Shown here in pieces: positions 39,701-59,258 of a stretch of DNA of 60,362 bases (positions are counted from its first letter, which is position 1; every line of letters starts with the position of its first letter). This DNA is from an uncultured virus (IMG/VR IMGVR_UViG_3300010885_064105) (taxonomy: Duplodnaviria; Heunggongvirae; Uroviricota; Caudoviricetes). The notes under the pieces were generated by a model. The model was not told the DNA's origin and did not search any database. It saw only the letters and a list, made by a program, of their open reading frames with translations. The stretch covers positions 62,001-122,362 of IMG/VR virus record IMGVR_UViG_3300010885_064105; one strand, written 5' to 3'. A program made the translations under genes and the position numbers.

Positions 39701-42700
39701 TAATTGGTTTAAAATAAAATCTTGCATCAGTATAATCAGAATTTATAGTATTGATGGAATTTAAAAGCTCTAATCTTTTTCCAATATTTATAGAATTAAA
39801 TACAGAATAAGCATTTAGCGACAAAGAAGAAAGAACTCTATCTCCACTAGTTTTAATTGATGTTATAGTAATAATTTCTTTGGGAAATCCTGTAACAGTA
39901 ACATTTATAGATGATGAGGTGTTTGAGCTGAATAGTGTTGTTGTTGTATTATCATTATTTAGCTTTACTATCCCTAATATTTCTCCACTAACAGAACTAA
40001 ATTGTCCACTTAAATTAATTTCTTGATAATCATAGCCTAAACATAATAAATTTATACTAGCAATATTAAAATTATGTAATAGGCCATTAGAAGATATGAA
40101 GTATGGATTATTTATTGTTCCACTGCCTTCATAGCTAAATGCTGGGCTATCCATATAAGAAATATTCAGAGGAGCATAGTTATATTCATTATAATTTACA
40201 GCAATACCTGTTGCTGGCCAAAATGAACCACTAGCAAAAACAGACATTACATAACCAGAGTATACTGTAGATGGAAAAGAACCGTTATAGGCTATATGAT
40301 TACCACTTCTTGGTATAGTCCCATCAAAATAAAAACCTTGTGTAAAATTTAATAATTTGGAATTTGGAACAAAACTTCTGCTAGAAGAACCTAGAAAACT
40401 ATTAATATCTATAATTTTTTCAGATGGCCATATAGCAGAACCTCCGTAGTCTAGATCATAAATTTTGTAGTCATTGTGAATAAAGGTAGAATTAAATCCA
40501 AACCCATTAGTGGTATATGAAGCATTTATTGCTTGTTCAAAATAATCTGGCCTATTATTTTCTTTTAATAAGTAATTCTTATCATCTTTAACATAAATAC
40601 TATTTCCTTTAATATCTATTATATCGAATAAATTATTTTTAGGTTGTCTATTAGCATTATTTTCTATAGTATTTAAAAATTTAACTGGAATCTGATTAAT
40701 TATAATATTATCTAATATTTTATATTCATGATTTTTTTCAACATTTATTAGAACAGAGCCAGCTGAATCTGGCTGTATATTGGGGAAAAAATATCCATTA
40801 TCAATTTTAAATTGTTTTACGCCTAAGTCACTTATAATTGGATACCACTGATTTTTAGGCTTTATTCCGTTATTTGTTGATAAAAAGTTTAAATATATAC
40901 TATCTTCATTATTCTCAAAATTTAGGTCCTCTGGACTATTTATAGATATAGAACTATAGCCAGCATCTGTATAAAAAGAAACAAGACCTGTTGAATAGTG
41001 ACCAGTAATATTTATATATTCGTTGGTTTCTGTATCAAATCCTTTAATATTATTATTTTTTGATAAGATAATTGGACATCTTTCTGAAGATAAATAATTA
41101 CTAGTAAAAGACTTTAATCCATTTATATAGTATGATCCAGAATTATTGATTGGTGTATTAAAAATACCTAAAATATTGTCTGAAAATATAATATTTGTAT
41201 CTAAAAGAAGATTATATCCGCTAGTAAAACATATTAGTCCTGTAGATGAACTACTCATGTTTATGAAATTTCTATTCAGAAAAATACCTGTACTAGTTAC
41301 TTTTGTAGCATAATAATTATCATCCCACTCTGGCATATCACTAAAAATTTGATTACCACTAAAAACAATATTTGTATAATTTATACTTGGCTCATTAAAA
41401 AGTAAAAAATTACTATTATAAGATATGGTAGCACTAAAATTTACAGGAGATAAAATTCCCGTTACTGTTTTGTTTGATTGACTACCAATACCGCTAACTA
41501 TTATATCTTGATTTAGCAAATAATTTATATTTCCAGATATTGTTATGGTAGGATAACTATATGAAGTAGAAGAGCACTCAGTTAAAGTGTTAGAGCCAGA
41601 GTGTGATCGACCGATAAAATTATTAGATGCTGTTTGAAATATTATATATGGATTATATCCGCCATCTGTTGATAATTTACCTACATTAGTATCATATGAT
41701 GTATTTTTAGGAACAGATATATTAGATAGATTTATATTATTTATATTAAATGATTGGATAGGGTCTGTGATATAATTTAATGAAGATATTGAATTATCTG
41801 TAATCTTAAGATTAAAATTGTCAGAAATTAATAAATTTTCTCCTGTAGATTTAACTAAAATATTTAATGTTCCAGAATTTTGCATTAATGGTATTCCACT
41901 AAATGTTTGGATACCGGTATTAAAAATTAACCATGTTGGTAAAGGTCTACCATCCGATAAACCAATACTATAAATAGAAGTTTCAGCTGGGAAAGTGTTA
42001 TTAGGAATAGTAAATTCAAATAATTCATTTATTATAGCATTTTGATCGGGAATATAATTTCTAACATGATTTCTTTTTTCTATTGGATCTATATCGATAG
42101 TAAAATATTTTTCATAATTTCTACCAGACATATCTGACGTTTTAATTCGAATTTTATAAGAGTCTTTGTGATATATATCACGGACTCTTGGAAAAATTGT
42201 GTATGCTAAATTAGAATTTTCATCACACATTAAAGATACTGGGGGGCCACCTGAAGACTCACTGAAATTAAATGAGTATAAATTACTATTAATTTCTTCT
42301 ATATTAATTGGAAAATAAGTAATATCTGGATTTATTCCTGATGGCAATCTAGAAACATCAGAATTAACCTCTTGAGAAGGATAAAATATATACCCTGTAC
42401 CGCTGCCAATATTTCTTGATGCTAGAAAATAGCAACTGTTTTCTTGTAAATCATAACTAATATCTATTCCAGTATTTTTAAATTTTAAATAACTATATAG
42501 GCCAGATTTATAAATCTCAAAAAGATTATTATCATCATCTCCGTATCCACAGATAAAATCATAAGAAAATGGAACAGATGGTGTCTCTACTGGCTCTAGA
42601 TTTTTGTTATAAATAGATATTCTACTATTACCATTCGTTGACGGCTCTCTAATATAAATACCATCATATCTATGATATCTTGTTTGATCTCTTGAGTATG

Positions 42701-45700
42701 TTCCTGAAATATTTTTATGTGATACCAAAGACACAGTACCGCTATTATTAGAGGCAGGAGTTATGGAGCAAATATTATCTATAAAAATATTATTTGGTAA
42801 ACCTGTAACTTTCATAGAATATGTCGGCAGATTGCAATATGTCGATGGATATGCTCCTGAGATGATTGTCACTGACTGTTGTCCATAACCAGAAATATTA
42901 ATATGTATGATCCTTGATGAGTCAAAGACATGCTTTGTGTAGCTTATAAGCTCTAGCGAGGCTAACGTATTGATAGATTGTCCGAATAGAGTTAATCCAG
43001 TAAACGGAGAATCAAGAGTTATAGAACTATTCGTCTTGGTGATAATTTTACCAGTCTGGGGAGCTATATGAGAATACTCTGCTCCATAAGGATTGTATTT
43101 TATATACATGCCAGTATGTAAAATATTTATGATATCTTGGGGGATATTATATATGTCTGGTGAGTTTGTATATATATATCCAGTATTAATTTGTATTTTA
43201 TTTTTAAAATCTATATCAGATAATATTTTTGGATCTAAAATAATTTCATTATTTGTTAATCTACCAGTCCAAGAAGTTTCTTTAATGGTAAAATTTGTAT
43301 TATCTATTATTTGATTAACTTCATATGATCTAGATGAAGGATTGTGTTCTGTAGCAGAAAGGAATGAGACCTTGGCTATGGACCCCGACACCATACCGTG
43401 AAAATATGATTTAATTGTAATCTCTGGGTTTCCAGAATTTTGATAAAACCAACCATAGTTTATCGGTTTAGAAATATTTAATTCTAAACTACCATCATGT
43501 GTTTTTTTATATGTTCCATCACATGTTATGTACTGTGGTATATATTTATATAAAGTTTGTGTATTATAAGCTTTTAAAGTTGGTGATTTTATATTAGGAT
43601 CTGTTACATCTAAATTTTGAATAAAATTATTATTATCTAATCTAAAATGATAGTAATATCTTCTTTTTTGAGAGTCATTATAAATTTCATTTTTCTTATG
43701 ATCTTTAAGAACTGATGTAATGTTAGTTATAAAAGAGGGGTTTTCTGGATTTCTAAAAGTGGAATTTTTTATTATTCCGCTCTCAAATTTGAATAAAGCA
43801 GCACCTGTTCCAGCTGCTTTGTTCATTAGTAATTCTAAAGTGTATGCTAGTGTTTTATTTTTAGGGATATTAATTATTGGGCTCATGTTAGTCCAGGAAC
43901 CATCAGTATTAACTCCGCTTATCCCAAGAGCGATAGTAGAATACTGTCCTTGAGCAATAGACAGTCCGTTGTTATCAAATTCTCTGAAAGAACCCAAACT
44001 TAATTGATTACTAGACCATGTATAACCATAGTTTCCAGCTGCTATAGAATTGTCTGCTAAACTTTGAGATTGAGAATTTAGAGCTATGCTATTATTACCA
44101 CTAACTAAGTTATAGGACCCAACAGCTAATGAATTATTACCTAGTATTTTATTATTTGATCCTATTAGTGTGGATCTATTGGCGCTATATAATCCAGTAT
44201 TATCTTGTCCAACTGAAAAATTAAAATTATTTGTAACTTTTACTATTTGTCCAGTTTGTTGAATTGCCGAATCACTAATGGTTCTGCTGGGATTATTTGT
44301 TCTATTATCGAATTTAGGTATAAATCCTACTGTGCCCTCTAGATTATTAAACTCAACTTTTTCATAATCAAAAAGCCCAGTCATATTAAAAGCATTATTA
44401 TAGTAATCTAAATTTTTTCCATGTAATAAATCAACATTAAGATTCTCAACCATTCCAGTATTAGAACCAACATTGAATGGAGGATAACTTTGTGGAATAA
44501 TAGTAAGCTGTCCTCTAACCGTTAAAGGTTGGGCAAAAGTTTTATTCCCACTTATTGTTTGATCAGAAAAAGAACTAACATACAAGCTATCCGCTACAGA
44601 CCTCAGAAGAACTATATTCATATCTCCAGTAATATTTCCTACAACATAAATTGAATTAGCATTTCCACCATCTACTTCGTTATTAAAATTATTCCCACTA
44701 CCAGCATCAATTAGTCCTGTTGCTCCAATATTTGTTATCAGTCGTAATTCTCTTTCTGCTGGATAGTATGCCAATATTCCTGTTTGTTTTGTCATCCCTC
44801 CATACATAAAGCTAAAACCTCTTGGTTCGCTTGGTAATATATAAGGAGAATTTGTTGCAAGTAGTGGTAGGTTATCATTTATCGTTAATTCATCACCATT
44901 AAGATTAACAGAGCCATTAACATCAAGAGGCCCATAGATTATGTCTCCTGTTGAAGATACTGGTCTGTATCCTAGTGAATTAACTATATCTCCATAATTA
45001 ATATCTTGACCATTTATTACTATTCCTTTATCATTAACTTGTACTTTACTATATAAACCAGGAGTTGATTGTACTGGCAAACTATTGGTATTCAAAATTC
45101 CTGTAGAGTTAGCAAGATCTAAATAATACGATCCCTGTTGACCATCTAATAAATCAGCATCAAGACCAGAATCTATTCCGTCATTACCAGCATGCCAAGG
45201 AGTATAAGTTAATATGTTAACAATATCTGTTTCTGTGAGATTTGATCCTGAGACAATTCTTCCTTTGATATCGGTAGTAACTTTGCTATAGGTTCCAGGA
45301 ATACCAGTACTTGATAATGATATAGAATTAGTTTCTACTAGAATATCAGAAGAACCCCCAATATTAAGAACCACAGAACCTGATGGTAAAGAGGTTAATC
45401 CTCCTCCTATTAATCCTGATCCAGCAACTATATCTATGGTTGTTCCACTAAGCAGTATTCTTCCTGTAGCGAGCGGGAAGGATGATATTTTGAACCCATC
45501 GAAATACAACAATCTATTAGTATTAAATAATTGATTATTAGTACCTCCTTTATCTATGGGGACTATTCCATCTATTGAACCTAAGTTTAGTTCTACTTTT
45601 CTAACTATGGTATCATCAATTATTAAAGTATTTTGATCATCTATAGTTAGTCCTGCTCCAGTATTAATACCTATCTTAGCATTGTTATTGTCAAGATTAA

Positions 45701-46088
45701 CATATAAACCAGAGTCTGCTATTATTCCAGTTAAATTACTATTATTACTAACACCATTTAAAATATCTTGTATACTATAATTAGAGCTAGTTAATTTATT
45801 TCCATCATAATAAATTACTGATCCACTACTAAAAACGGAATTATTAGTTCCGCCACTATTTATAGGTAATATATCAAATATGATACCATCTTTACCGGGA
45901 TCGCCCTTTGGACCAACTGCGCCAATATTTCCTTGTAATCCTCTTTCAATAGATACTAAATTAATCTTATTATTTCGAGTATCTGATATGACTACATTGG
46001 TAGTCATTAGACTTTCTGAGTCCTTTTGTTGTGTTACTATTAAATATTTAAGAGGCTGTATATTTTCTTCTACTCTAACAATACTCAT
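33708..46088 (-). CDS. Giant fibre/adhesin-like virion protein (4126 aa)
   Basis: Short collagen; fibre motifs (PIxxGGT, GTYSKVTTDIKGRI, LDADLLDG, DQTISGNKTF); YadA-like head repeats (NSLAVG/NSIAL/NSIAAG); cadherin/He_PIG-like Ig domains (IPDQ...LPTWLIFN...TFSGIP). Confidence 0.8.
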   Translation of the reverse strand: MSIVRVEENIQPLKYLIVTQQKDSESLMTTNVVISDTRNNKINLVSIERGLQGNIGAVGPKGDPGKDGIIFDILPINSGGTNNSVFSSGSVIYYDGNKLTSSNYSIQDILNGVSNNSNLTGIIADSGLYVNLDNNNAKIGINTGAGLTIDDQNTLIIDDTIVRKVELNLGSIDGIVPIDKGGTNNQLFNTNRLLYFDGFKISSFPLATGRILLSGTTIDIVAGSGLIGGGLTSLPSGSVVLNIGGSSDILVETNSISLSSTGIPGTYSKVTTDIKGRIVSGSNLTETDIVNILTYTPWHAGNDGIDSGLDADLLDGQQGSYYLDLANSTGILNTNSLPVQSTPGLYSKVQVNDKGIVINGQDINYGDIVNSLGYRPVSSTGDIIYGPLDVNGSVNLNGDELTINDNLPLLATNSPYILPSEPRGFSFMYGGMTKQTGILAYYPAERELRLITNIGATGLIDAGSGNNFNNEVDGGNANSIYVVGNITGDMNIVLLRSVADSLYVSSFSDQTISGNKTFAQPLTVRGQLTIIPQSYPPFNVGSNTGMVENLNVDLLHGKNLDYYNNAFNMTGLFDYEKVEFNNLEGTVGFIPKFDNRTNNPSRTISDSAIQQTGQIVKVTNNFNFSVGQDNTGLYSANRSTLIGSNNKILGNNSLAVGSYNLVSGNNSIALNSQSQSLADNSIAAGNYGYTWSSNQLSLGSFREFDNNGLSIAQGQYSTIALGISGVNTDGSWTNMSPIINIPKNKTLAYTLELLMNKAAGTGAALFKFESGIIKNSTFRNPENPSFITNITSVLKDHKKNEIYNDSQKRRYYYHFRLDNNNFIQNLDVTDPNIKSPTLKAYNTQTLYKYIPQYITCDGTYKKTHDGSLELNISKPINYGWFYQNSGNPEITIKSYFHGMVSGSIAKVSFLSATEHNPSSRSYEVNQIIDNTNFTIKETSWTGRLTNNEIILDPKILSDIDFKNKIQINTGYIYTNSPDIYNIPQDIINILHTGMYIKYNPYGAEYSHIAPQTGKIITKTNSSITLDSPFTGLTLFGQSINTLASLELISYTKHVFDSSRIIHINISGYGQQSVTIISGAYPSTYCNLPTYSMKVTGLPNNIFIDNICSITPASNNSGTVSLVSHKNISGTYSRDQTRYHRYDGIYIREPSTNGNSRISIYNKNLEPVETPSVPFSYDFICGYGDDDNNLFEIYKSGLYSYLKFKNTGIDISYDLQENSCYFLASRNIGSGTGYIFYPSQEVNSDVSRLPSGINPDITYFPINIEEINSNLYSFNFSESSGGPPVSLMCDENSNLAYTIFPRVRDIYHKDSYKIRIKTSDMSGRNYEKYFTIDIDPIEKRNHVRNYIPDQNAIINELFEFTIPNNTFPAETSIYSIGLSDGRPLPTWLIFNTGIQTFSGIPLMQNSGTLNILVKSTGENLLISDNFNLKITDNSISSLNYITDPIQSFNINNINLSNISVPKNTSYDTNVGKLSTDGGYNPYIIFQTASNNFIGRSHSGSNTLTECSSTSYSYPTITISGNINYLLNQDIIVSGIGSQSNKTVTGILSPVNFSATISYNSNFLLFNEPSINYTNIVFSGNQIFSDMPEWDDNYYATKVTSTGIFLNRNFINMSSSSTGLICFTSGYNLLLDTNIIFSDNILGIFNTPINNSGSYYINGLKSFTSNYLSSERCPIILSKNNNIKGFDTETNEYINITGHYSTGLVSFYTDAGYSSISINSPEDLNFENNEDSIYLNFLSTNNGIKPKNQWYPIISDLGVKQFKIDNGYFFPNIQPDSAGSVLINVEKNHEYKILDNIIINQIPVKFLNTIENNANRQPKNNLFDIIDIKGNSIYVKDDKNYLLKENNRPDYFEQAINASYTTNGFGFNSTFIHNDYKIYDLDYGGSAIWPSEKIIDINSFLGSSSRSFVPNSKLLNFTQGFYFDGTIPRSGNHIAYNGSFPSTVYSGYVMSVFASGSFWPATGIAVNYNEYNYAPLNISYMDSPAFSYEGSGTINNPYFISSNGLLHNFNIASINLLCLGYDYQEINLSGQFSSVSGEILGIVKLNNDNTTTTLFSSNTSSSINVTVTGFPKEIITITSIKTSGDRVLSSLSLNAYSVFNSINIGKRLELLNSINTINSDYTDARFYFKPIITLDQKICLENQEHRKLNNRVFFNGNKLTINNLSTPRSYVNTNDQIKLLTLNNSSNFSESEVSRYAKITSTLDNNTLISGIPVNGLKIQPNSFYPYCFGIKADQELPSSGNLSYIGAVSGLCSIPYYNNLYHHTYGGYTANWPKDPYGKTVVSPLTGVFSIQGNYSQCSSGTMCLNIKGFSTTNFDSIPDLTNRSLIGKQPSSIDTDFVDGYVRPWGISNKKYYFDFSDGAPELNGSYYINDKVDSYNITINIPYNSSYIGRSGLVYIIDSEYNIKSNLNPNIDNSFLVSESNASVTTDSLPSLSVNLIDSKINSFNLMSKRWKHLVHFNNPTSIAYSGYNISFDSSQQTVSQLLYLNPDKINILDIEYSMNYGLSYLKLNDNIINIKTTDEGPIYLKIKTKDGSQKWSQPLLSSAPKINIYGLSSYFIDTNTISYDSYNKIWTINIIIDDIQTYIKENREFVVTISDETGSIDKNFLLNVFKVPIINIPKTIYSYVNSPIPWSVNYDIKDLPDPALIVMSNYPGPSFSINNEIFDNSNGTKNLYGYAGSVTGTFNTVLTVKDYVTGEDLASQTGMIKILPMNEIKPEYSLDPIGLSDNIYLNVDNDNNSSSFAFYIDAINQSKTNIRVNLNGDEGYSRNINIEHNSFYNRFKITVNLVGLEGYYPNKSISISLSQPSPNNDEEEWIEYSFTRLLNITLYKNLSIDRYTMPQPLSFDKQDTWFLQFYVLGGIYADRQDLHPSVKLSNLPNNGSYQTQPLEYNIDYEYDNIGKRWKIIATGRSDSFARMVENLGIKNIKIFVEDSINTVSDNVNLTFTQNKYLTNLQSITYSIPNESYQTVFDIKQASMNEDIIINIPPSLKNNDISLSLINKKYDNNLSLYELSYYGAPIYSKWDANISFNNINNSLTDNQISSLIVQCKGISDDKIYAIGKLNLIELDSFTLPGLPIMITGVNKPYYMANEGSPWRITFKTLYGLENPNFPPTILLSGLPTVCSGYYPQRPLELQNGCLESRVWNPSDKSWNFSFTGFPLCGIEGLKSFSISAIDTDTIQNISFGYDTINGYIKYKSLNEGGFDHPGPQIITVGTASETNQLSPLCNSPISLSYRFGTTGRELCSIPTGITGWTVVSTGSYNLLPSGLSYTITFPGGNPKRPWSNLGSGLLTIQGNPRTFANGGEYNEKLILTVYDARGKSAQKIIKFMDISAPNPPSPVELPVYFDSEKPIYTPRRDARTLNDRPELGSAPIGYRSYPNIEYVYWPPAANYALQCDTILPHNQCPITSFSYSGGDFQSFDFRVFINPLGNNINTAKPVYIEFDNNPSNSFNGKYNLSYQNSQYFITINPNGLSTLSTGVGRLVQERTTNFGTSDLQKFIGNVDITTTNSLLGCGSFLSKSILNEGGYGLFGRMYPSVKVQIPSGVPYSAQNNNSPPLLGMNILRLNNNYVQDTDNNIYTIKTSDCWQTGYLRISGIMLPAPIVELTDPAPASEAYFAYNGQQYYVGSRCVYGNNQDERNLLANKRDVNINYRLKNIISNSVYANSFVTSNQAISFNHTESTGTVFSLFINNNPSVFPTYDVGAIRYAENEYFWIHKAGTKNETITQNSFPPVVIGGIQNIYCVSGQSISGYNGVAVGGYVPFNENWSTQQYAPFISGLIQRRVSNARNIVYSHSGSSNINYQYIKSELSDNPYNISVGDAISISFSNTDIPTQNITLTSGNIIDNTLLIPYSRPGSQQIINGIATFSFLSSITGITSDTIAIKHKNLPLSTGDSVDIVSGSTSTLNNIYPLNGLMTVAEYDSTSAIISYSGSDSTFSNNLVINSNIDIYKNYHNQINISSLNFSKEGYWTFNLSGIPTGLYKDYRYKIVTCENTGLPVFQGTDLSPKKYSSVYNLYINKPIKILLTNNYSIPNNNGSWTLTFSVDGGNRPIQNYTPEVMVNNQICNFSRALDPMFMKDSYDEINDRWNITIASNNNYNWRYDTSFELKLFDDTGFDTKTIIFNNG

Positions 46089-47214: not shown

Positions 47215-47754
47215 ATGCCCATAGAATTGTCTCTCAAACAAATTTGCTCAATTTATGCTACCGATAAAAATTGTCTTCATTGTTATGTGGATGAAATTTA
47301 TGAAGAATTATTTAAAGAATTTCGATACTCAGCCAATAAGGTTCTAGAAATTGGGGCCTATAATGGTGCTAGTATAATGATGTGGAAAGATTATTTTACT
47401 AAAGCTGAAATTTTTACTATAGATAATGTGCCATGTCATCAAATAACTGGACGAGAACGAATTCATTCTTTTCTTGGAGATGCCTATAGCTATGAGGCTC
47501 TAAAAGATTTACCAAATGATTTTGATATTATAATTGAGGATGGATCTCATAAAATTGAGGATATGAGTTTTGTGGTTGTTGAATATGTTAAAAAACTGAA
47601 ACCAAATGGAATATTAATAATAGAAGATATTCCAGATTTTAACTGGACCAATATTTTAAAGAATCTAATACCAGACAATTATAAGGTTGAGATAAAAGAT
47701 CTTAGAAGAGTTCGTGGTCGTTATGACGATATTGCTATGATTATTAGGTCTTAG
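47215..47754 (+). CDS. Class I SAM-dependent methyltransferase (sugar O-methyltransferase-like)
   Basis: TDK...H.Y...YE, VLEIG...GAS..MW, FDIIIEDGSH, LKPNGILIIED; AGGA SD; the only credible plus-strand gene. Confidence 0.85.
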   Translation: MPIELSLKQICSIYATDKNCLHCYVDEIYEELFKEFRYSANKVLEIGAYNGASIMMWKDYFTKAEIFTIDNVPCHQITGRERIHSFLGDAYSYEALKDLPNDFDIIIEDGSHKIEDMSFVVVEYVKKLKPNGILIIEDIPDFNWTNILKNLIPDNYKVEIKDLRRVRGRYDDIAMIIRS

Positions 47755-49084: not shown

Positions 49085-50215
49085 TTAAAATTTGTTGAAA
49101 AAAGGGCTTAGGGCAATATTTTTAAAATCAAAACCGGATAGTGTGGATATCTTTTGCCCTCTGTTTGCAGTGTATGGCACAAAATGAATGTCTCCGTTGG
49201 GTGCCAAGACTCCGCCCCAATATGCACTACTAGCAGTATAACCTAAACTATAAGTGCTTACCACTCCGCTACTACTTATTTTTTGTCCTCTGTTTGCACC
49301 GTATGGCACAAAATGAATATCTCCGTTGGGAGCTAAAACTCCGCCAGCATATGCACTACTAGCAGTATAAACTAAACTATAAGTGCTAACAACTCCATTA
49401 ATATCTATTTTTTGTCCTCTGTTTGCACCGTATGGCACAAAATGAATATCTCCGTTGGGGGCTAAAACTCCGCCAACATATGCACTACTAGCAGTATAAA
49501 CTAGACTATAAGTAATAACTACTCCGCTACTACTTATTTTTTGTCCTCTGTTTGCACTGGTTGGCACAAAATGAATGTCTCCATTGGGAGCTAAAACACC
49601 GCCCCAATATGCACCACTAACAGAGGTATAAACTAAACTATAAGTGCTTACCACTCCGCTACTACTTATTTTTTGTCCTCTGTCTGCAACGTATGGCACA
49701 AAATGAATGTCTCCATTGGGAGCTAAAACTCCGCCAGCATATGCACTACTAGCAGTATAAACTAAACTATAAGTGCTTACCACTCCGCTACTACTTATTT
49801 TTTGTCCTCTGTTTGCAACGTATGGCACAAAATGAATATCTCCGTTGGGAGCTAAAACTCCGCCAACATATGGACTACTAGCAGTAGCAGTATAAACTAA
49901 ACTATAAGTGCTTACCACTCCGCTACTATCTATTTTCTGTCCTCTGTTTGCAGAGTTTGGCACAAAATGAATGTCGCCATTGGGGGCTAAAACTCCGCCA
50001 ACATATGCACCAACAGTATAAACTAAACTATAAGTGCTCACAATGGTATTATTAAAAACTTGACTACCAGTAGTTGATTCGTCAAGTATCACTTTCATCT
50101 TGTTCCACGCCACAAGACCAGTATCAATAGAGCTATTGTCGCTAGATGGAACTGTTCCATTAACAAGACTTTGAACTTCTGAAATGAATGATGGTGAATT
50201 TAATCTTGTGCTCAT
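49085..50215 (-). CDS. 7-bladed beta-propeller repeat protein, paralog C
   Basis: Seven ~43-aa repeats YxGGVLAPNGDIHFVPxxANRGQKIxSSGVVSTYSLVYT, nearly identical at DNA level. Confidence 0.85.
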   Translation of the reverse strand: MSTRLNSPSFISEVQSLVNGTVPSSDNSSIDTGLVAWNKMKVILDESTTGSQVFNNTIVSTYSLVYTVGAYVGGVLAPNGDIHFVPNSANRGQKIDSSGVVSTYSLVYTATASSPYVGGVLAPNGDIHFVPYVANRGQKISSSGVVSTYSLVYTASSAYAGGVLAPNGDIHFVPYVADRGQKISSSGVVSTYSLVYTSVSGAYWGGVLAPNGDIHFVPTSANRGQKISSSGVVITYSLVYTASSAYVGGVLAPNGDIHFVPYGANRGQKIDINGVVSTYSLVYTASSAYAGGVLAPNGDIHFVPYGANRGQKISSSGVVSTYSLGYTASSAYWGGVLAPNGDIHFVPYTANRGQKISTLSGFDFKNIALSPFFNKF

Positions 50216-50216
50216 A

Positions 50217-51344
50217 TTAGAACTTATTTAAAAAGGGTGAACAACAAACTCCAATATTTAATGGTTTGGCTGGAAGGGTGGAGATTTTTTGACCAACAGC
50301 AGCTTGAAATAGAATAAAATGAATGTCTCCGTTAGAGGATAGGACTCCTCCTTGATATGGTAAGCCGGTATAAATTAAACTATAAGTACTTACTACTCCA
50401 CTAGTGTTAATTTTTTGTCCTACTCTTGCGGAAGATGGCACGAAATGAATATCTCCGTTATGAGTTAAAACCCCGCCAGAGTAAGAACCGCCGGTATAAA
50501 CTAAACTATAAGTGCTAACAACTCCTGATAAGCTAATTTTTTGTCCCACAGCCCCAATATTGGGAACAAAATGAATGTCTCCATTGGTAGCAAGCACTCC
50601 TCCTTGATATGCTCCGCTTGGGTTTGTATAAATTAAACTATATGTACTAACAGTTCCAGAGCTACTTACTTTTTGTCCTCTGTTTGCGCTGTATGGTACG
50701 AAGTGTATATCTCCGTTTGGAGCCAATACCCCTCCAATATAAGCACTTGCTGTTGTATAAATTAAACTATATGTACTTACAACTCCAGAGCTACTGATTT
50801 TTTGCCCTCTGTCTGCTGACCTAGGAATTAAATATATATCTCCATTGGAAGCAAGAACACCTCCTGCATATGATAAAGCTGAGGTGTAAATTAAACTATA
50901 AGTGCTAACAACTCCGTTTATATCAATTTTCTGTCCTCTGTCGGCGCTTTGCGCAATAAAATGAATATCTCCATTCGATGCCAAAACACCACCATAGTAA
51001 GCACCACCAGTATAAACTAAACTATAAGTACTAACCACTCCGCTACTATTTATTTTTTGCCCTCTGTCTGCAGACCTTGGCACAAAATGTATATCTCCAT
51101 TTGGTGCTAAAACTCCACCATTATATACTCCACCTCCAGCTCCTGTATAAACCAAACTATAAGTGCTAACTATTCCTTGACTAAATGCTGTTCCATTATT
51201 CTGAGATTTTTCCAACAGTGTTTTAAATTGATTCCAAGCAACCAAATCACTGCTAATACTACTGTTATCACAATTAGGAATAGCTCCCCTTACTTTGTTT
51301 TTAACTTCGGTCTGCCATGTTGGTGATATGTCGTATATTGCCAT
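50217..51344 (-). CDS. 7-bladed beta-propeller repeat protein, paralog B
   Basis: Same repeat x7; C-terminus CCSPFLNKF. Confidence 0.85.
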   Translation of the reverse strand: MAIYDISPTWQTEVKNKVRGAIPNCDNSSISSDLVAWNQFKTLLEKSQNNGTAFSQGIVSTYSLVYTGAGGGVYNGGVLAPNGDIHFVPRSADRGQKINSSGVVSTYSLVYTGGAYYGGVLASNGDIHFIAQSADRGQKIDINGVVSTYSLIYTSALSYAGGVLASNGDIYLIPRSADRGQKISSSGVVSTYSLIYTTASAYIGGVLAPNGDIHFVPYSANRGQKVSSSGTVSTYSLIYTNPSGAYQGGVLATNGDIHFVPNIGAVGQKISLSGVVSTYSLVYTGGSYSGGVLTHNGDIHFVPSSARVGQKINTSGVVSTYSLIYTGLPYQGGVLSSNGDIHFILFQAAVGQKISTLPAKPLNIGVCCSPFLNKF

Positions 51345-51347
51345 GAT

Positions 51348-52484
51348 TTAAGATTTGTTTAAGAAAGGTGAACAACAAGTGCCAATGTCAAAAGGAAGAG
51401 CGGCTGTGGTGGATATTTTTTGACCAACAGCACCATTTAATGAAAAGAAATTAATATCAGCGTTTGTAGATAAAACACCACCAGAGTACCCACCAGTTGA
51501 CAATGTATAAATTAGACTATATGTACTTACTACACCTGTAGAGCTTATTTTTTGACCTCTATTGGCAAATCTAGGTATAAAATAAATATCTCCATTTGGC
51601 GATAAAACACCTCCAGAATATGCAAATGTGGTCGTATAAATCAAACTATATGTGCTTACCGCTCCATTTGTATTTATTTTTTGTCCTACAGTCGCAGAAT
51701 ATGGAACGAAATTAATATTTCCATTGCTATCTAAAACACCACCATTATATCCGTTAGTAACAGAATATACTAAACTATATGTGCTTACAACTCCGCTACT
51801 ACTGATTTTTTGTCCTACGCTCGCTGCAAAAGGGACAAAATATATGTCTCCGTTGGGAGCCAAAACCCCTCCATTATAAGCATTAGTTACGGTATAAATT
51901 AAACTATATGTACTAATAACATTACTACTATTTATCTTTTGTCCTACAGTAGCATTAAAAGGTATAAAATGAATATCACCATTAGCTCCAACAACACCTC
52001 CTGTGTACGCTCCTATAGAGGTTGTGTAAATCAAGCTGTATGTGCTTACCACTCCATTTTTATCTATTTTTTGTCCTCTATTAGCAAAATATGGAACAAA
52101 ATGAACTTCTCCAGCAGAAGATAAAACTCCTCCTGAGTAAGCTGTTCCTGCGGTATAAACTAAACTATATGTGCTTACCGCTCCATTTTTATCTATTTTT
52201 TGTCCTCTATTAGCACTACAAGGCACAAAATTAATATCCCCATTAGGAGCAAGTACTCCACCGATATAAGCTGTTCCTGCGGTATAAATTAAGTTGTAGG
52301 TACTTACTATAGGATTGCTAAAAATACTACCAGCAGTAACGCTTTTGTTCAAAAGACTTTTGAAGTTATTCCAAGAATTTAAAAAAGAATCTATGCTGCC
52401 ATCGTCACCAGAGGGTAAAAAACCATTGGCTGCTTTTTGAACATTTTCTGCAAATTTTGAAGATATAATATTTACATCTGGCAT
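51348..52484 (-). CDS. 7-bladed beta-propeller repeat protein, paralog A
   Basis: Same repeat x7; C-terminus CCSPFLNKS. Confidence 0.85.
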   Translation of the reverse strand: MPDVNIISSKFAENVQKAANGFLPSGDDGSIDSFLNSWNNFKSLLNKSVTAGSIFSNPIVSTYNLIYTAGTAYIGGVLAPNGDINFVPCSANRGQKIDKNGAVSTYSLVYTAGTAYSGGVLSSAGEVHFVPYFANRGQKIDKNGVVSTYSLIYTTSIGAYTGGVVGANGDIHFIPFNATVGQKINSSNVISTYSLIYTVTNAYNGGVLAPNGDIYFVPFAASVGQKISSSGVVSTYSLVYSVTNGYNGGVLDSNGNINFVPYSATVGQKINTNGAVSTYSLIYTTTFAYSGGVLSPNGDIYFIPRFANRGQKISSTGVVSTYSLIYTLSTGGYSGGVLSTNADINFFSLNGAVGQKISTTAALPFDIGTCCSPFLNKS

Positions 52485-52487
52485 ATA

Positions 52488-55400
52488 TTATGTTCCTATT
52501 ACAGACACTCTGTATTGGTTGGTAGTTGGAGCAGAAACAAATATCACATTCAAGCTATTTGCATTTACATATACTATATCTGGATAAACATAGTAGTTTG
52601 TAGTTGTATCTCTAATAACAACATATGTATCATTTGCTGTATTTAAATTATGTGTGACTGCGTATGTAGTGTTTGTTCCGTCGCCTATGAGGACTGAGTA
52701 TGTGGATGCTGATCCTCTGGTGCCTTGCACACCCTGAGTACCTTGTAAGCCTTGAACTCCCTGACTTCCCGTAGTTCCCTGACTACCAACGGTACCTTGA
52801 ACGCCTTGTAAGCCTTGAACGCCCTGTACACCTTGTGTTCCTTGTAAGCCTTGAGTGCCTTGAGATCCTTGCACTCCTTGTAGACCTTGAGTTCCTTGCA
52901 CTCCTTGTGAACCTTGAGTACCTTGAACGCCTTGAGTGCCTTGAACGCCTTGAGTACCTTGAACGCCACGAACACCTGCGAGTGTTATCGTCCAGGATGT
53001 TGCTATGGTTGTGCCCAGATTATAATCAGCGGCGATAGCAAATGATGTGCCACCAGTAATTGTTACTATGCCTTCAAATAAATTAGACGCTGTGTTTATT
53101 GCACGAACACGATTTCCAGTTGCGAATGCTCCTTGGGCATTTGTTGTTAAAGTAATTGTGCCAGTAGAGGCTGGCGTTGCGGATGTTGTTGACGTTATTC
53201 CTGAATATCCAAGTCCTATTGTGCCTTGGACGCCTTGAGTGCCTTGAACGCCTTGTAAGCCCTGAACACCCTGAGTACCTTGTAAACCTTGAACGCCCTG
53301 AGTACCTTGAACGCCTTGGACGCCCTGTAAGCCTTGGATACCTTGGGTGCCTTGGGTGCCTTGGGTGCCTTGTACTCCTTGCAAACCTTGAACTCCCTGA
53401 GTACCCTGCACACCCTGTAAGCCTTGAATGCCCTGGGTTCCTTGTGTCCCTTGTAATCCTTGGACTCCTTGACTGCCTGTGCTGCCAACGGCGCCTTGAC
53501 TTCCCACGGCACCTTGAGTTCCTTGAGTGCCTTGCAGACCTTGAACGCCTTGAACACCTTGAACACCTTGAGTTCCTTGTAAACCTTGTGTTCCCTGCGA
53601 GCCTTGAGTACCTTGAACACCTTGAGTGCCTTGGTTGCCAGTTCTGTCAAATCGTATCCATGCTGTTCCTCCATTTGAGTATGAATTTAAACCTGATAAC
53701 CAAGAAACAGGAATGGAATACCATGTTGTATTATTAGTAGGTGTGCCTGTTACCGTAAATTGCTGGGGTCCAGAACCAAAAACATTAGATAATGTAATTA
53801 CAGCTTTGCTAGTGGGATCATTTGAAGAACCTAATATAGATAAAACTCCATTGCGATTAGTGCTTGTGGCGTCAGTTAGTGAAATAGAAATAATAGTAAC
53901 AGAGGTTAGTGTCGCACTATTATATTTAATATTCCCAGCACCCGGATCCGAAACTGTGGTATCAGTGGAAAATACCCAATTTAATCCAGCACTAGCTCCG
54001 ATTGTTCCTTGAGTTCCTTGTAGTCCTTGCGCTCCTTGTAAACCTTGAACGCCTTGTAAGCCTTGAACTCCTTGACTACCTTGACTGCCGGTAATGCCAA
54101 CGGTGCCTTGACTTCCCACGGTACCCTGACTACCAACTGTACCTTGCGTACCTTGAGAACCTTGAATATCCTGCGCAAGTCCATTTATATTAGCAAAACT
54201 TTCTACACTAGTTGCTCCGACTGTAGATCCTATTGATGCTGTGACAAAAACACCATTACCATAGACTAAAGCAGTAAAAGAAGTTTGGCCGCTAATAATA
54301 GTCCTAGATGTCCAATTAATACCGTCAGGACTTATCGCCCCAGTGTCTGAAATAGAATTTAGAGCAACAAAAGTTCCATTTCCGTAAGAAACATACCAAT
54401 CGCCACTAGCAGGAAGAGTTCTCTGAGTCCATGTGACTCCATCTGGACTCGTTGCTGCAATGTTTGAAGAAGACTTAGAAACAGCTACAAAGGTGCCGTT
54501 TCCATAGGTAACAGAACACCAACCAGCACTCGTTGGGAGAGTTGTTTGATTCCATGTAATACCATCATAGCTAGTGGCTACTTTGTTTGAAGAATTAGCA
54601 ACTGCAACAAAAACACCATTGCCATATGTGATTGAAATCCAAACGGAACTACTAGGCATAGTTCTTTGAGTCCACGTAATTCCATCTATGCTAGTCGCAC
54701 AAACACTTGACGAGTCTATGACAATAAAAACACCATTTCCATAGGCAATATCCAGCCAATTAGTACTAACAGGAAGAGTTCTCTGGGTCCATGTGACTCC
54801 ATCTGGACTTGTTGCTGCAATGTCCGTGAAGTTACCGATGGCAACAAAATTGCCATTTCCATATGCTACACTTTTCCAAAAAGTGCTAGCTGGCATGGTT
54901 CTTTGAATCCAAGTAAGCCCATCAGTGCTGGTTGCTGCTGCGGTGCCGTTGCCTGTGACAAGAAAGGTTTTATTGCCGTAGGCAGCACCGTACCATGAAG
55001 AACTTGTAGGAAAAGTTGTTTGAGTCCAGTTGGAATAACTATTTGATATGTCTGACGAGCTTAAAGTAACAACGCCAGTTTTGCCAGCAACACTTTGAAC
55101 TAAATTTGTGGCCCCAGAACCTTGGGTTCCTTGTATGCCTTGAACACCCTGAGTTCCTTGTGTCCCTTGTAATCCCTGGCCTCCTTGAGTACCTTGACTG
55201 CCGGTACTGCCAACGATGCCTTGACTTCCCACGGTACCCTGACTACCAACGGTACCTTGAACTCCTTGAGTACCTTGTCGGCCTTGAACACCTTGAACTC
55301 CTTGACTACCTTGACTGCCGATGGTGCCTTGACTACCTTGGAGCAATATATTACTTATCAATGATCTATTAATTAAACCACTAGTTTGAATCAGTAAATA

Positions 55401-55637
55401 ATCACTATTCTGAGGATTAGCTATAGTACCAAGAGAAGGTAAAGATAAATTATTAAATTGTCCACTATTTGCTATAATTAATCCACTAATATTAGTATTA
55501 CCAATAATATCTAGTTGACCACTTGGTGTATTAGTATTAATGCCTACTTTATTATCTGTAGAAATAAATATGGTCTCTTTAGTGCCAGACGCGCTAATAG
55601 ATTGACCTAATTGAGCATTATTATAATTTATTGTCAT
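52488..55637 (-). CDS. Collagen-like fibre with an embedded 7-repeat beta-propeller
   Basis: Four (G-X-Q)n blocks; seven W..[VI][AT]YGNG.FV repeats with S.DG.TW Asp-box-like motifs; N-terminal [16 protein letters not shown]-terminal VTHNLNT. Confidence 0.85.
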
Positions 55638-55680
55638 AGGTATATTAATAATCCTAGGTAGATATTATGACTATCAAAAT

Positions 55681-55687
55681 ATACACC
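55681..55687 (-). promoter_or_regulatory. GGTGTAT promoter-like motif
   Basis: CGGTGTATATTTTGATAG about 44 nt upstream of the 55637 start. Confidence 0.5.
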
Positions 55688-55717
55688 GTGCTGGATCTTA
55701 GTATTAAAAGAGTAAAT

Positions 55718-57046
55718 TTATGAAATTTTTCTAAAAATAAAACAATTTTCTGACGTTTGAATATTAGATAAGCATTCATTAACAGCTTTTTTAACGCCAG
55801 GAAAGTAATCAATATCTCCAAGATAATAATCATGTCCTGCTAAAATACCACCAGCTTTAATTTTAGGTAACCATGCTTCTATATCTTTTTTAACATCTTC
55901 ATATTCATGAGAAGCGTCAATAAAAACGAAATCTAAGGATTGATCTTTGAATCTATGAACTGCCTCCAAAGAACTCATTCTAAAGTCTTTGTAATATTTT
56001 TGTAATGGTTGCATATTATTAGTAAAAATATCATATAATTTTTCTAACTCTTTATTGTGTTGATGTTCTAGGCTTCCCTCCCAGGTATCTATACAATAAA
56101 ACTCAATATTTTTTTTAGAGTTAGCAATTTCAACAGCCATAAAAGCAGAAGATTTACCTTTCCAGCTGCCAACTTCGACAAAAGTGCTTCCAGAAGGGAA
56201 TTGATCAACTATAGATCTGTATAAATTAGGATAACTAAACCAATCCTCTCCAAATTGACTTTGTTGATAAATATGTTGAATTTGTAGTGTAGACATTATT
56301 TGTTTAATAGTAAAATTAACTCCTACATTTTTCCACCAATGCATAATATGGTTATATGAATCCCAATGATATTCTCCTTGTCCATTAATTGCTGTAAAGT
56401 CTATTCCAAAATATGTTGATTCAACATTTTTAACATCTTCTACTAATAATGGAATATTATATACAACTCCTAAATTAGCGAAAAGAATGTTTTCAACTAT
56501 TGGAATAAGATTGGTATTGTATATATCTAAATTAAATTCATTGTCGCTAACGTAATAATGATCTATAATTTTTTTGGCATATTCTCTTTTGATTAAATAT
56601 GCTGCTGCTCCCCAATCGTGAACATCTCTTAATCTAAATGTTATGTCTGGATAATTAGGTCTAATCCAAGCTAACTGGATACACTCCCAGTCTTGTGGTA
56701 GATTATTAACAAACTCATCCCAAGTAAAAGACCAATATTGTACAGGTTCTAGGGAGAGATCATCTTCACAAAAGAAAGCATAGTCTTCATTGGTTGAATC
56801 ATACCAGCTTTTGATTGCTTTTATGTGGGAAGTTGTGGGGCCTTTGCTATTCTCATGAAGATCTTTTACATATGACCCATTTAAAACTACATTATCATAC
56901 TCTTGATATCTTTTATAGATGTGTGGAGTAAAGTTTGTGATATTATATTGTTTAAATTGTTGAATTAAATTTGATCTTCTTTTTTTCGACTCCTCTATGC
57001 TAATATAATTGACCGTTGGAAAATTAGCTAAGGCTATTAGATTTCT
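55718..57046 (-). CDS. GT25-like glycosyltransferase fused in frame to a Methyltransf_24-like methyltransferase; no canonical start
   Basis: The frame of track ORF 55718..56344 stays open up to 57079: LANFPTVNYISIEESKKRR...SHIKAIKSW...FFCEDD...DWECIQL...AAYLIKREYAKK, then FVEVGSWKGKS...DFVFIDASHEY...GGILAGHDY. Confidence 0.8.
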   Translation of the reverse strand, partial: RNLIALANFPTVNYISIEESKKRRSNLIQQFKQYNITNFTPHIYKRYQEYDNVVLNGSYVKDLHENSKGPTTSHIKAIKSWYDSTNEDYAFFCEDDLSLEPVQYWSFTWDEFVNNLPQDWECIQLAWIRPNYPDITFRLRDVHDWGAAAYLIKREYAKKIIDHYYVSDNEFNLDIYNTNLIPIVENILFANLGVVYNIPLLVEDVKNVESTYFGIDFTAINGQGEYHWDSYNHIMHWWKNVGVNFTIKQIMSTLQIQHIYQQSQFGEDWFSYPNLYRSIVDQFPSGSTFVEVGSWKGKSSAFMAVEIANSKKNIEFYCIDTWEGSLEHQHNKELEKLYDIFTNNMQPLQKYYKDFRMSSLEAVHRFKDQSLDFVFIDASHEYEDVKKDIEAWLPKIKAGGILAGHDYYLGDIDYFPGVKKAVNECLSNIQTSENCFIFRKIS

Positions 57047-58284
57047 TTTTTTTTTAAGAACATAAGATCTTTGATCACATTAATATCTTGAGCAGGATAC
57101 GATTTGAATTCGTTAAGTACCTCTGCGTCTATGAGGTCTTTATGAACCCACCAATCTTCAAATGTACAATCACTATGAGGTGATATATCATTAAATACAA
57201 GAGTATAACCAACACTTTCTAAATACCTTCTAGATTTTTCTCGATATATTTTACTCATATCTACATAATGATCATGTTCGTAAGTAATAACTCTAAATTT
57301 GTACTTATTAAATGGTATTAATAATAGTGCTTCAAATGTATTTTTAGATGGTTCTATATCTAGTTGTAGATAGTCGATAATATTAGAAGAGAAAGTTTCA
57401 GACAATAGTTTATCGTAATCTACTGCTAAAGCATCTCCATTTATAACTCTATTTTTTCTTTCATGGATATGTTGTGAGGCTAACTCTCCATTTAGTTCTA
57501 TTCCAACCCCGGTCCAGTTAAAGTTTTGTTCAAGCAATGCTGTATTACTATTGTGGAAAGCGTGGGCTGATCCTATTTCCAGATAGGTTCCGTTAGTTTT
57601 ACCTTGCAAAGCAGCTAAGATGAATAGATCCTGACATACCTGAGAAAAGTTCTTTTCTATATTTTCTGAGCCTGGAAATTTAAATCTTAATAGATCATGC
57701 TGGGATTGGTCGTATCTGGTAATAGCTTCGGACTCTGGACCTGATCCTAGTGTAGATAAGTTTTGTTGAATTAGATGCTTATAAATGTCGTTAAGTTTAT
57801 CCTTATAATCATTCATTAAAACTCGCAATAGTTTTCTAGCTTCTCTGGGTTTACCGCACCACCATGAAGCTACTGCTTTTTGAAAAACCAAAAAATATTC
57901 GCCCTCATAGCCCACATCAAGATTGTCTGATGGCTCTTCTAATGCTAGTCCTATACAAGCATAAGTATAAGAATCCATCCATTGTAGTCTATGTTCATGT
58001 AATTGACTCAAAAAGAAATATGCTTCTCTTCTTGAAGGATATATAGCAATTGCTTGTTTTAATAGATTTTCACAAGTATGGTCTCTATTGCCGATTTGTT
58101 TGTAACATAAAAAGGTACGTAAAATACATTTATATCTCAGTAATTGATTATTTGTAAATTCTGCACATTTAATATAGAATCCTGATGCTGGAGCATAATG
58201 TTTCTGATCCTCATACCATTTTGCTAGCTCAAAAATTGCTATATCATTAGTGTGATCATTAATATAATTATCTAGTAATTTCAT
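57037..58284 (-). CDS. TPR-like region + FkbM-like methyltransferase
   Basis: Helical TPR-like N-half (AIAIYPSRREAYFFLS); FSQVCQD.F...NGTYLEIG...SNTALLE...W.G..IE...IDYLQLDIE...VITYEH...FEDWWV. Confidence 0.8.
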   Translation of the reverse strand: MKLLDNYINDHTNDIAIFELAKWYEDQKHYAPASGFYIKCAEFTNNQLLRYKCILRTFLCYKQIGNRDHTCENLLKQAIAIYPSRREAYFFLSQLHEHRLQWMDSYTYACIGLALEEPSDNLDVGYEGEYFLVFQKAVASWWCGKPREARKLLRVLMNDYKDKLNDIYKHLIQQNLSTLGSGPESEAITRYDQSQHDLLRFKFPGSENIEKNFSQVCQDLFILAALQGKTNGTYLEIGSAHAFHNSNTALLEQNFNWTGVGIELNGELASQHIHERKNRVINGDALAVDYDKLLSETFSSNIIDYLQLDIEPSKNTFEALLLIPFNKYKFRVITYEHDHYVDMSKIYREKSRRYLESVGYTLVFNDISPHSDCTFEDWWVHKDLIDAEVLNEFKSYPAQDINVIKDLMFLKKKEI

Positions 58285-59258
58285 ATATTCAACATCTTCT
58301 TAATTATATGTTTTGGAGCTTCTAATAAATATGCTGCATTATCTTGTACTCCAAAAGTCATCAATAAACTATCATTATAGTCACATAGGCCACAACAAAA
58401 TTCAACCTCACATCCTGTAAAGCTAAATGGTTCTGAAATTTTAACTATATGAAAATCTTGATTCCATAATACCAATCTATGTTTGTATGATACATTCTTT
58501 CTTCCTGCTTCACTCTTAAATAAATAAGTTTCATGAGTTAATGCTAAGTAATGATCTTCAAAAGGAATAACCTGAGATCCACCTCTTAAATCAGCAGCTT
58601 TTAGATCTTGGTATTCTGTTAATATTACAGTTTCGCAAATGCCTGTAACCGGATCAAATTTAGCTACTTCTGTAGGGTTTGTCCATTTTACATAATGATA
58701 TGGCTTGTCCAGAATGGGCATCCAGTTTTTCTCACAGTAACTACTATTATTTCCTGGCGCTGGAATTCTTTGTCTTTTAATTTCAACACTTTTATTATTT
58801 TTGATTAAAATTTCTGATAATTCCATTCGTCCTTCGCCATTAGTAGTAGTGTCCCTTCGTACTCCAGAAAGAAAAAATTTATTATCCCATTCTACTATTC
58901 TACAATCTTCTAATCCTACAAATTCCCACAAAGGTTTTTCATCTAACAAAGACGTATCTACAATGCTATGAGATTCTATTTCTAGTTTTTCATTTAAATT
59001 ACACAATATATTGTATGTTGTTAATGTAATATCGTTTTCTGGATGTAAATAGCATAGAGGTCCCCATATGTGCTCATTAACCCCATTCTCTGCATGATAT
59101 AAAACATAATTGATATTGCGTAAATTAACAATTAATTGATTATCTTTGTTTCTAAAAATAGAAGGATTGGTTAGAGAAGTTCCTATCATTGATGAAGAAG
59201 GAACTACTAAAGGATGGATTGATCCACCTTGTTCTAATATGGATTTGACGATATTCAT
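58281..59258 (-). CDS. GH130-like / five-bladed propeller glycan-active enzyme
   Basis: NPSI, GLEDCRI, EKNWMP, LRGGSQ, VEFCCGL, FGVQDN motifs. Confidence 0.65.
   Translation of the reverse strand: MNIVKSILEQGGSIHPLVVPSSSMIGTSLTNPSIFRNKDNQLIVNLRNINYVLYHAENGVNEHIWGPLCYLHPENDITLTTYNILCNLNEKLEIESHSIVDTSLLDEKPLWEFVGLEDCRIVEWDNKFFLSGVRRDTTTNGEGRMELSEILIKNNKSVEIKRQRIPAPGNNSSYCEKNWMPILDKPYHYVKWTNPTEVAKFDPVTGICETVILTEYQDLKAADLRGGSQVIPFEDHYLALTHETYLFKSEAGRKNVSYKHRLVLWNQDFHIVKISEPFSFTGCEVEFCCGLCDYNDSLLMTFGVQDNAAYLLEAPKHIIKKMLNI

Follow-up and report, generated by a model that had tools for sequence, protein, structure and literature searches.

A length-variable poly-A tract between TPR-methyltransferase and GT25-like glycosyltransferase-methyltransferase halves in uncultured phages

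Introduction

How is a reading frame expressed that encodes two enzyme-like domains and has no start codon over its first 245 codons? We considered this question for a locus on the minus strand of an uncultured Caudoviricetes virus (IMG/VR record IMGVR_UViG_3300010885_064105, here G000, 122,362 nucleotides [nt]), of which positions 62,001 to 122,362 were analysed as one stretch of 60,362 nt, referred to below as the window. Coordinates are window positions unless stated otherwise. At this locus, a gene for a 415-amino-acid (aa) protein with a TPR and a methyltransferase-like domain ends just beyond a run of ten adenines (A10), and a frame encoding a GT25-like glycosyltransferase domain and a second methyltransferase domain continues from it, shifted by -1. 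We found that tract length and frame differ between near-identical genomes with both halves intact, and that the tract is kept despite genome-wide depletion of such runs. An earlier note on this DNA had offered several readings; its proposal of slippage at the run is supported by the length polymorphism, whereas its sequencing error, its ATA start and a dnaX-type form of its frameshift are not.

The junction and its reading frames

On the minus strand, the junction reads ATG TTC TTA AAA AAA AAA GAA ATC TAA. The A10 tract (57046..57055), the proposed slippage site, supplies the last base of a leucine codon and three AAA lysine codons, and the zero-frame TAA stop of the upstream open reading frame (ORF; 58284-57037) lies two codons past it (57037..57039), as the earlier note had described. 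The stop-to-stop frame at 57079-55718 (453 aa) is -1 relative to this ORF and, again as described, has its first ATG, GTG or TTG at 56344. It was the only one of the 80 ORFs kept to have a long start-less head (245 codons, the next being 35). A tract of A11 or A8 would be in frame, and A11 or a -1 step gives a protein of 413 + 442 = 855 aa, counted from the coordinates; the four-domain product of ~855 aa that had been predicted has counterparts in relatives, where fused four-domain proteins exist. The window genome itself carries the out-of-frame, short allele.

The same arrangement was recovered in other assemblies. A contig from an independent study spans 55500-58469 with 38 substitutions and no gaps, and two contigs of source X3, one of X5 and one of X6, among those listed, also bridge the run without gaps; no bridging contig listed had any change inside the run. 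X5 comes from the same study as X2, and X6 from a third; the X6 contig, at depth 60, shows 27 differences over 221 nt, and contigs from the two other studies are up to 12% divergent. A contig of X1 bridges the run as well, although X1 is possibly the source itself. An identical 415-aa protein was found on three contigs from two sources. In three divergent bridging contigs, from X3, X5 and X6, the TAATA at the stop reads CAGCA. The -1 relation is retained in these contigs, the zero frame ends at a TAG three codons later, and the ATA at 57035..57037, which the earlier note had suggested as a coupled start, is replaced by GCA and is thus not conserved. After the run, the ratios of synonymous to non-synonymous codon changes in three contigs were 5/4, 6/6 and 6/5 in the -1 frame and 1/8, 1/11 and 1/10 in frame 0.

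Tract length and frame among relatives

Scans of viral and metagenome contigs gave 13 distinct DNA loci with this junction once duplicates were removed. Excluded from the count were re-fetches (L001, L006, L103 and L116, which are the window; L079/L124; L080/L120; L077/L117; L115), L130, whose junction duplicates that of L118, and loci in which the domains are ordered differently. The comparison covers the rows listed, which skip about L101–L105, matches at 41–44% apart from L103. All 13 loci had at least nine adenines at the junction, and the tract was conserved across phages at 64–70% methyltransferase identity and 32–57% guanine-cytosine (GC) content. Eight loci were in frame: L008, L078, L118, L122, L123 and L125 with A9, L119 with A10 and L121 with A17. 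Three were at -1, namely the window (A10), L003 (A13) and L010 (A9), and two at +1, L002 (A11) and L007 (A9, with the module deleted and a scar left).

L119 (A10, in frame), L002 (A11, +1) and L003 (A13, -1) differ by a synonymous divergence (dS) of only 0.03–0.06 in the upstream half, yet each is in a different frame. L002 and L003 are both out of frame; over the 435 codons of their downstream half they had 56 synonymous and 31 non-synonymous differences, with a ratio of non-synonymous to synonymous divergence (dN/dS) of 0.11, and the downstream half of out-of-frame strains contained no stops. Most cross-clade pairs were saturated at dS, and their dN/dS was not used. The alleles show slippage at the DNA level.

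Protein-level data were available for more relatives. Lysine triplets (KKK) stood at the joint in 51 of the 55 distinct fused four-domain proteins, and of 157 short proteins, 35 ended in a KKK or KKR tail and 122 lacked that tail. The earlier note had asked whether homologues are fused or split, and both occur: among the 18 clusters looked up, six mixed fused and truncated KKK/KKR-tailed members, six were fused only, five truncated only and one tract-less. Fused and short tips were interleaved on the tree. Tract-less short proteins and tract-less fusions (P0022, P0025) both occur in nature. Headless GT25-methyltransferase proteins matched truncated partners in the length of their longest contig in at least eight cases, which is circumstantial support for retention of the downstream half.

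The cluster of the window included two proteins that are alike up to the end of the tract, K6-GIQQP (34 contigs) and K7-ESSSLS (1 contig); read back from protein, these alleles would be about A19 and A21. This cluster contains both halves, which share no sequence. Elsewhere, the two halves fall into one cluster when a fused member connects them, as in that of P0138, whereas P0145 and P0342 are in separate clusters. The window's cluster therefore probably has an in-frame member among those not listed.

Other variants of the junction were observed. In L007 (5660-5740, a 95% aa relative) and in run X4 (joint 55718-57043), the entire GT25-methyltransferase module was deleted, and the scar in L007 joins the first codons past its A9 tract to the last methyltransferase codons. 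The same four domains were circularly permuted in L081, L082, L126 and P0012-P0020 (GT25-MT24-TPR-MTase, ~850 aa) without a run of at least nine adenines, and many further shuffles of these domains were present in other phages. A separate clade of short proteins (P0200-P0202, P0208-P0210, P0337) had identical bodies with DIMLKKK or DIMLKKKNN ends and no fused member seen, which suggests tract-length variation there too. One or two codons 5' of the tract, an ATG (57063-57061 in the window) was invariant in 13 of 13 loci. This ATG precedes the run and is read in the zero frame, so out-of-frame alleles cannot be rescued by it; in in-frame alleles it could be a start for the module alone.

Retention of the tract

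At ten bases, the tract exceeds every other homopolymer of the 122,362-nt contig. G000 contained two A/T runs of at least nine versus 26 of eight, and its 78 genes (the two junction genes excluded) held one coding-strand run of at least nine adenines versus 8.1 ± 2.1 in 200 synonymous-codon shuffles, none of which was as low. G000 avoids such runs. In the records of relatives, runs of at least nine adenines numbered 15 in 323 kilobases (kb), 7 in 251 kb, 4 in 230 kb, 4 in 188 kb, 1 in 24 kb, 1 in 14 kb and 6 in 162 kb. The junction tract was always among these few and was the longest in G001, G002 and G008.

None of the five other KKK in G000 is all-AAA, and a single synonymous change to AAG in either of the first two lysine codons would remove the liability. 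L010, at 57% GC, uses AAA for 12 of its 73 lysine codons, yet has AAA AAA AAA at the junction. The stand-alone relatives L009, L011 and L012 had no tract. The retention of the tract points to selection for it.

A putative contingency locus

The reading that we favour, on balance and narrowly, is that A10 is a length-variable tract at a domain boundary that serves as a selected slipped-strand switch between the short protein and the fused ~855-aa enzyme, and that the switch is probably leaky. The locus has two features by which contingency loci are recognized: a simple repeat within an ORF sets the frame by its length, and length and frame differ among near-identical genomes. Under this reading, the tract boundary would separate a stand-alone TPR-methyltransferase from an add-on GT25-methyltransferase module, and replication slippage would flip the tract reversibly within populations. 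The host RNA polymerase may also add an A on the run, so that out-of-frame alleles would yield some full-length protein as a minority product. The add-on module would extend and O-methylate a glycan of a virion protein or of the host surface, so that the switch could vary surface or substrate modification; its output would be a sugar-transfer and O-methyl-capping module added to a TPR-guided methyltransferase. The earlier note had proposed phase-variable switching of glycosylation. The switching gains direct support from the tract-length polymorphism, and glycosylation as its output is suggested by domain identity.

Either form alone is found in nature, as tract-less short proteins, tract-less fusions and module deletions, which suits an optional switch. 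The three frames among siblings, the expansions to 13–21 adenines, the probable A8 alleles and the dispensability of either form also favour switching. Such a switch would explain why gene callers report one gene variously as a protein of 850 aa, as one of 415 aa or as a headless methyltransferase.

Several observations weigh against it. None of the 16 members seen, out of 36 in the window's cluster, was fused; nine of its ten tract-bearing upstream proteins, the putative A19 included, were of the -1 type; and six of six bridging contigs of the window's clade (X1, X2, two of X3, X5, X6) were at -1. There was no indel at the run in the contigs compared across it, all of them assembled contigs. 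The P0145 clade was uniformly short (three of three members). Stability of this kind is more to be expected of a recoded gene than of one that flips freely. In AT-rich genomes, where AAA makes up 71–87% of lysine codons, a run of at least nine adenines is individually likely at each locus given KKK (P 0.40–0.72), and the product of P was 0.011 over eight AT-rich loci, which are non-independent.

A two-level form of slippage is a more tentative possibility. Family-wide, DNA polymerase would reset the tract in a heritable manner, and the host RNA polymerase would read it stochastically, so that a lineage tunes the ratio of two- to four-domain protein, and thus a virion or host glycan, and does not turn the gene off.

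Alternative explanations

The main rival, itself compatible with switching, is programmed transcriptional slippage of the tssM or Thermus dnaX type. Here the selected function would be the production of both proteins from every allele, and length changes in the DNA would be tolerated, shifting only the ratio. Transcriptional slippage at the run is plausible; as the selected function we think it rather unlikely. No sequenced locus had fewer than nine adenines and six of the eight in-frame loci had exactly nine, the run length given for efficient slippage by bacterial RNA polymerase in PMC5009743. For tssM, in-frame and out-of-frame versions of one gene and 15–25% slippage are described in PMC4256274. 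The -1 state persists over 12% divergence, and about half of the changes past the run are synonymous when read in that frame. The alternative frame is intact and under purifying selection (dN/dS 0.11, L002 versus L003), with invariant motifs kept in the window. Use of the host polymerase is likely, as RNA polymerase beta (PF00562) was absent from all five records checked; a sigma-70 domain (sigma-70 r2) was present in two of these. However, short proteins ending in MLKKK, MVKKR or MIKKR, some with an intact downstream half, would imply tracts of A8 or shorter, under the efficient length, and the tracts of 13–21 adenines and the module deletions argue that no fixed ratio is needed.

We consider it improbable that the tract has no function, the lysine linker being a mutational hot spot at which the module is repeatedly broken and is being lost. 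Module deletion with a scar in L007 and in run X4, the abundance of stand-alone short proteins (the 122 of 157 without a KKK/KKR tail) and the AT-richness of the genomes fit this explanation. It does not account for the missing synonymous AAG, which would cure the liability as elsewhere in G000, for the tract in GC-rich L010, for KKK in 51 of 55 fusions, or for a downstream half that is free of stops in out-of-frame strains at a dN/dS of 0.11.

Programmed -1 ribosomal frameshifting, of the E. coli dnaX or IS3 type, is very unlikely. The slippery heptamer A_AAA_AAA is present in the zero frame, three of the five out-of-frame loci are at -1, as is most of the window's clade, and the majority state is still -1 at the putative A19. 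However, the heptamer is not the strong A_AAA_AAG form, and A_AAA_AAA is much weaker in Escherichia coli (PMC5009743). There was no 3' structure (-7.6 kcal/mol, z 0.38) and no conserved upstream Shine-Dalgarno-like motif, and the geometry was not constant (eight loci in frame, three at -1, two at +1). A -1 shift cannot rescue L002, which is at +1, and leaves unexplained why in-frame alleles have nine or more adenines. With no hairpin and two of five out-of-frame loci at +1, a dnaX-type form of the frameshift put forward earlier is unlikely.

Equally unlikely, in our view, is that the downstream half is a gene of its own, with translation re-initiating close to the stop of the upstream ORF at ATA here and at GTG or ATG in other strains. 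TAATA resembles the TAATG/ATGA coupling of this operon, the GTC at 57013-57011 is GTG in X5 and X6 (P0243, P0245), a methionine lies just past the tract in some split lineages (P0342, P0343, P0346, P0347), and the first beta-strand of the predicted structure begins at the valine of 57013-57011. However, the strains share no start: ATA is GCA in three contigs, of which X3 record 2 also keeps GTC, and L002 and L010 have no ATG, GTG or TTG within 20 codons of the domain start. The same methionine also occurs in fused proteins (P0311, L119), and the tract is left unexplained.

Homopolymer sequencing or assembly error, the other alternative in the earlier note, has virtually no chance of being correct, because, even though the break coincides with the longest homopolymer and contigs were compared in place of reads, the independent contig with 38 substitutions and no gaps, the gap-free contigs of X3, X5 and X6 in the same frame and the same 415-aa protein on three contigs refute it.

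Predicted functions of the two halves

The short product (57037..58284, minus strand; 415 aa) was modelled with high confidence (predicted local distance difference test [pLDDT] 95) as a TPR region (about residues 1–180) followed by a Rossmann-type methyltransferase-like domain (about 189–407). The TPR region was below the Pfam cut-off yet clear by fold (Z up to 17.2). The methyltransferase-like domain, a candidate class I, FkbM-like methyltransferase, had no Pfam match; in Foldseek, it matched Bud23 (TM score 0.61 by target, E 9e-5) and gave weak methyltransferase matches. A sequence search of the PDB with the upstream profile found TPR proteins only, and the fold-match list for the upstream protein was likewise filled by TPR matches. 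Stand-alone proteins matching this TPR-methyltransferase occur in many relatives, and a homologue in S-SCSM2R has 45% identity.

The start-less -1 frame opens with a GT25-like GT-A glycosyltransferase domain (56297..57046, minus strand), matching phrog_2835 at E 3.8e-42. Its acidic, putatively metal-binding motif, E91-D92-D93, was invariant in a 40-sequence alignment, of which the window keeps every invariant column. By fold, the domain resembled mimivirus R655 (Z 17.4, root-mean-square deviation 3.0, 190 residues aligned) and the ColGalT1 complex (Z 14.6), and cyanophage GT25 proteins of phrog_2835 (S-SM2, ACG-2014f, DSL-LC03) shared 30–34% identity with it. The earlier assignment to GT25 is supported by PHROG, fold and homologues, but not by Pfam, where PF01755 scored 15.9 bits against a cut-off of 24 (E 0.012). 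The same frame continues into a Methyltransf_24 class I S-adenosylmethionine-dependent methyltransferase domain (55718..56296, minus strand; 79.1 bits against a cut-off of 26.3), similar in fold to Mycobacterium MeT1 (Z 20.1), and ends at the TAA at 55720-55718. The predicted structure of the downstream half was confident (pLDDT 91). No NCBIfam profile scored above its cut-off.

Genome and gene context

G000 encodes tail and baseplate proteins, ribonucleotide reductase, DnaB, a primase, a split DNA polymerase III alpha, PhoH and several glycosyltransferases. The sequencing runs containing the stretch were labelled freshwater, aquatic or plain metagenome, and the family of relatives consists of large freshwater phages. 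A scan of contigs from prokaryote genomes found no relative, and hence no clue to the host.

Directly upstream of the junction gene lies a 325-aa gene (58281..59258, minus strand) with a weak match to GH130, a mannoside phosphorylase-like family, below the cut-off (E 0.038). Its stop overlaps the next start (ATGA), coupling it to the TPR-methyltransferase gene, and an ORF of 325–330 aa was in this position in 20 of the 20 loci listed. Downstream, a collagen-like tail-fibre gene (52488..55637, minus strand) is a possible substrate. It is not a conserved neighbour: collagen repeats were in the flank of only three of the 20 loci.

Other features of the genome were also observed. After the collagen-like fibre gene, three tandem paralogous genes of ~376 aa (49085-52484), with ~46-aa repeats carrying a GGVLAPNGDIHFVP motif, likely encode beta-propellers. 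A lone Methyltransf_24 gene is on the plus strand at 47215-47754, and in L122 the fused gene is followed by the start of a similar protein. Very large ORFs occupy 2-21514 and 33708-46088, with products of about 7,800 aa (G000 60130-83517) and 4,126 aa. A 3'-5' exonuclease gene separates the two genes into which DNA polymerase III alpha is split (G000:C1 25620-30069, L134).

Comparison with known systems

The GT-A fold is shared with mimivirus R655 and ColGalT1, and the class I methyltransferase fold with MeT1. Mimivirus collagen glycosyltransferases are reportedly a known related system. The four-domain order was absent from all cultured-phage matches. Cyanophage glycosyltransferase clusters are a further related system (PMC12801897). 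A non-exhaustive literature search found no paper on the junction of this family.

Among cases of transcriptional slippage, Citrobacter rodentium tssM1 (A11), Yersinia pseudotuberculosis tssM3 and Thermus thermophilus dnaX are alike in that a run of at least nine adenines closely precedes a stop, one protein exists in a short and a long variant, and orthologues are in frame or out of frame (PMC4256274, PMC5009743). Those tracts are treated as fixed in the DNA, whereas the tract here is polymorphic among close strains. In tssM1, both forms and their ratio are required (PMC4256274), whereas either form is dispensable in relatives of the window.

Phage contingency loci have been described recently, mainly in laboratory phages, as ON/null switches. 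T2 agt, with an A9 run, is a measured reversible contingency locus and T4 rIIA likewise a contingency locus (Gomez, Barrick, Waters, PMC12633550), and polyG tracts are known in Campylobacter Fletchervirus (Sorensen 2021, as cited in PMC11868660 and PMC12633550). In all of these, as here, changes of one unit in a homopolymer within a phage ORF shift the frame, and T2 agt also shares a poly-A run within a glycosyltransferase gene. In the known cases the shift gives a null, whereas at this locus, where it lies between domains, the truncated product is still a complete protein that exists on its own. The tract here is, moreover, conserved across divergent phages, with all three frames as consensus in wild populations. 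The locus offers population-scale evidence, from uncultured large phages, of a tract, apparently selected over long divergence, that would swap domain architecture instead of killing the gene, and a concrete, clonable case for telling replication slippage from transcriptional slippage.

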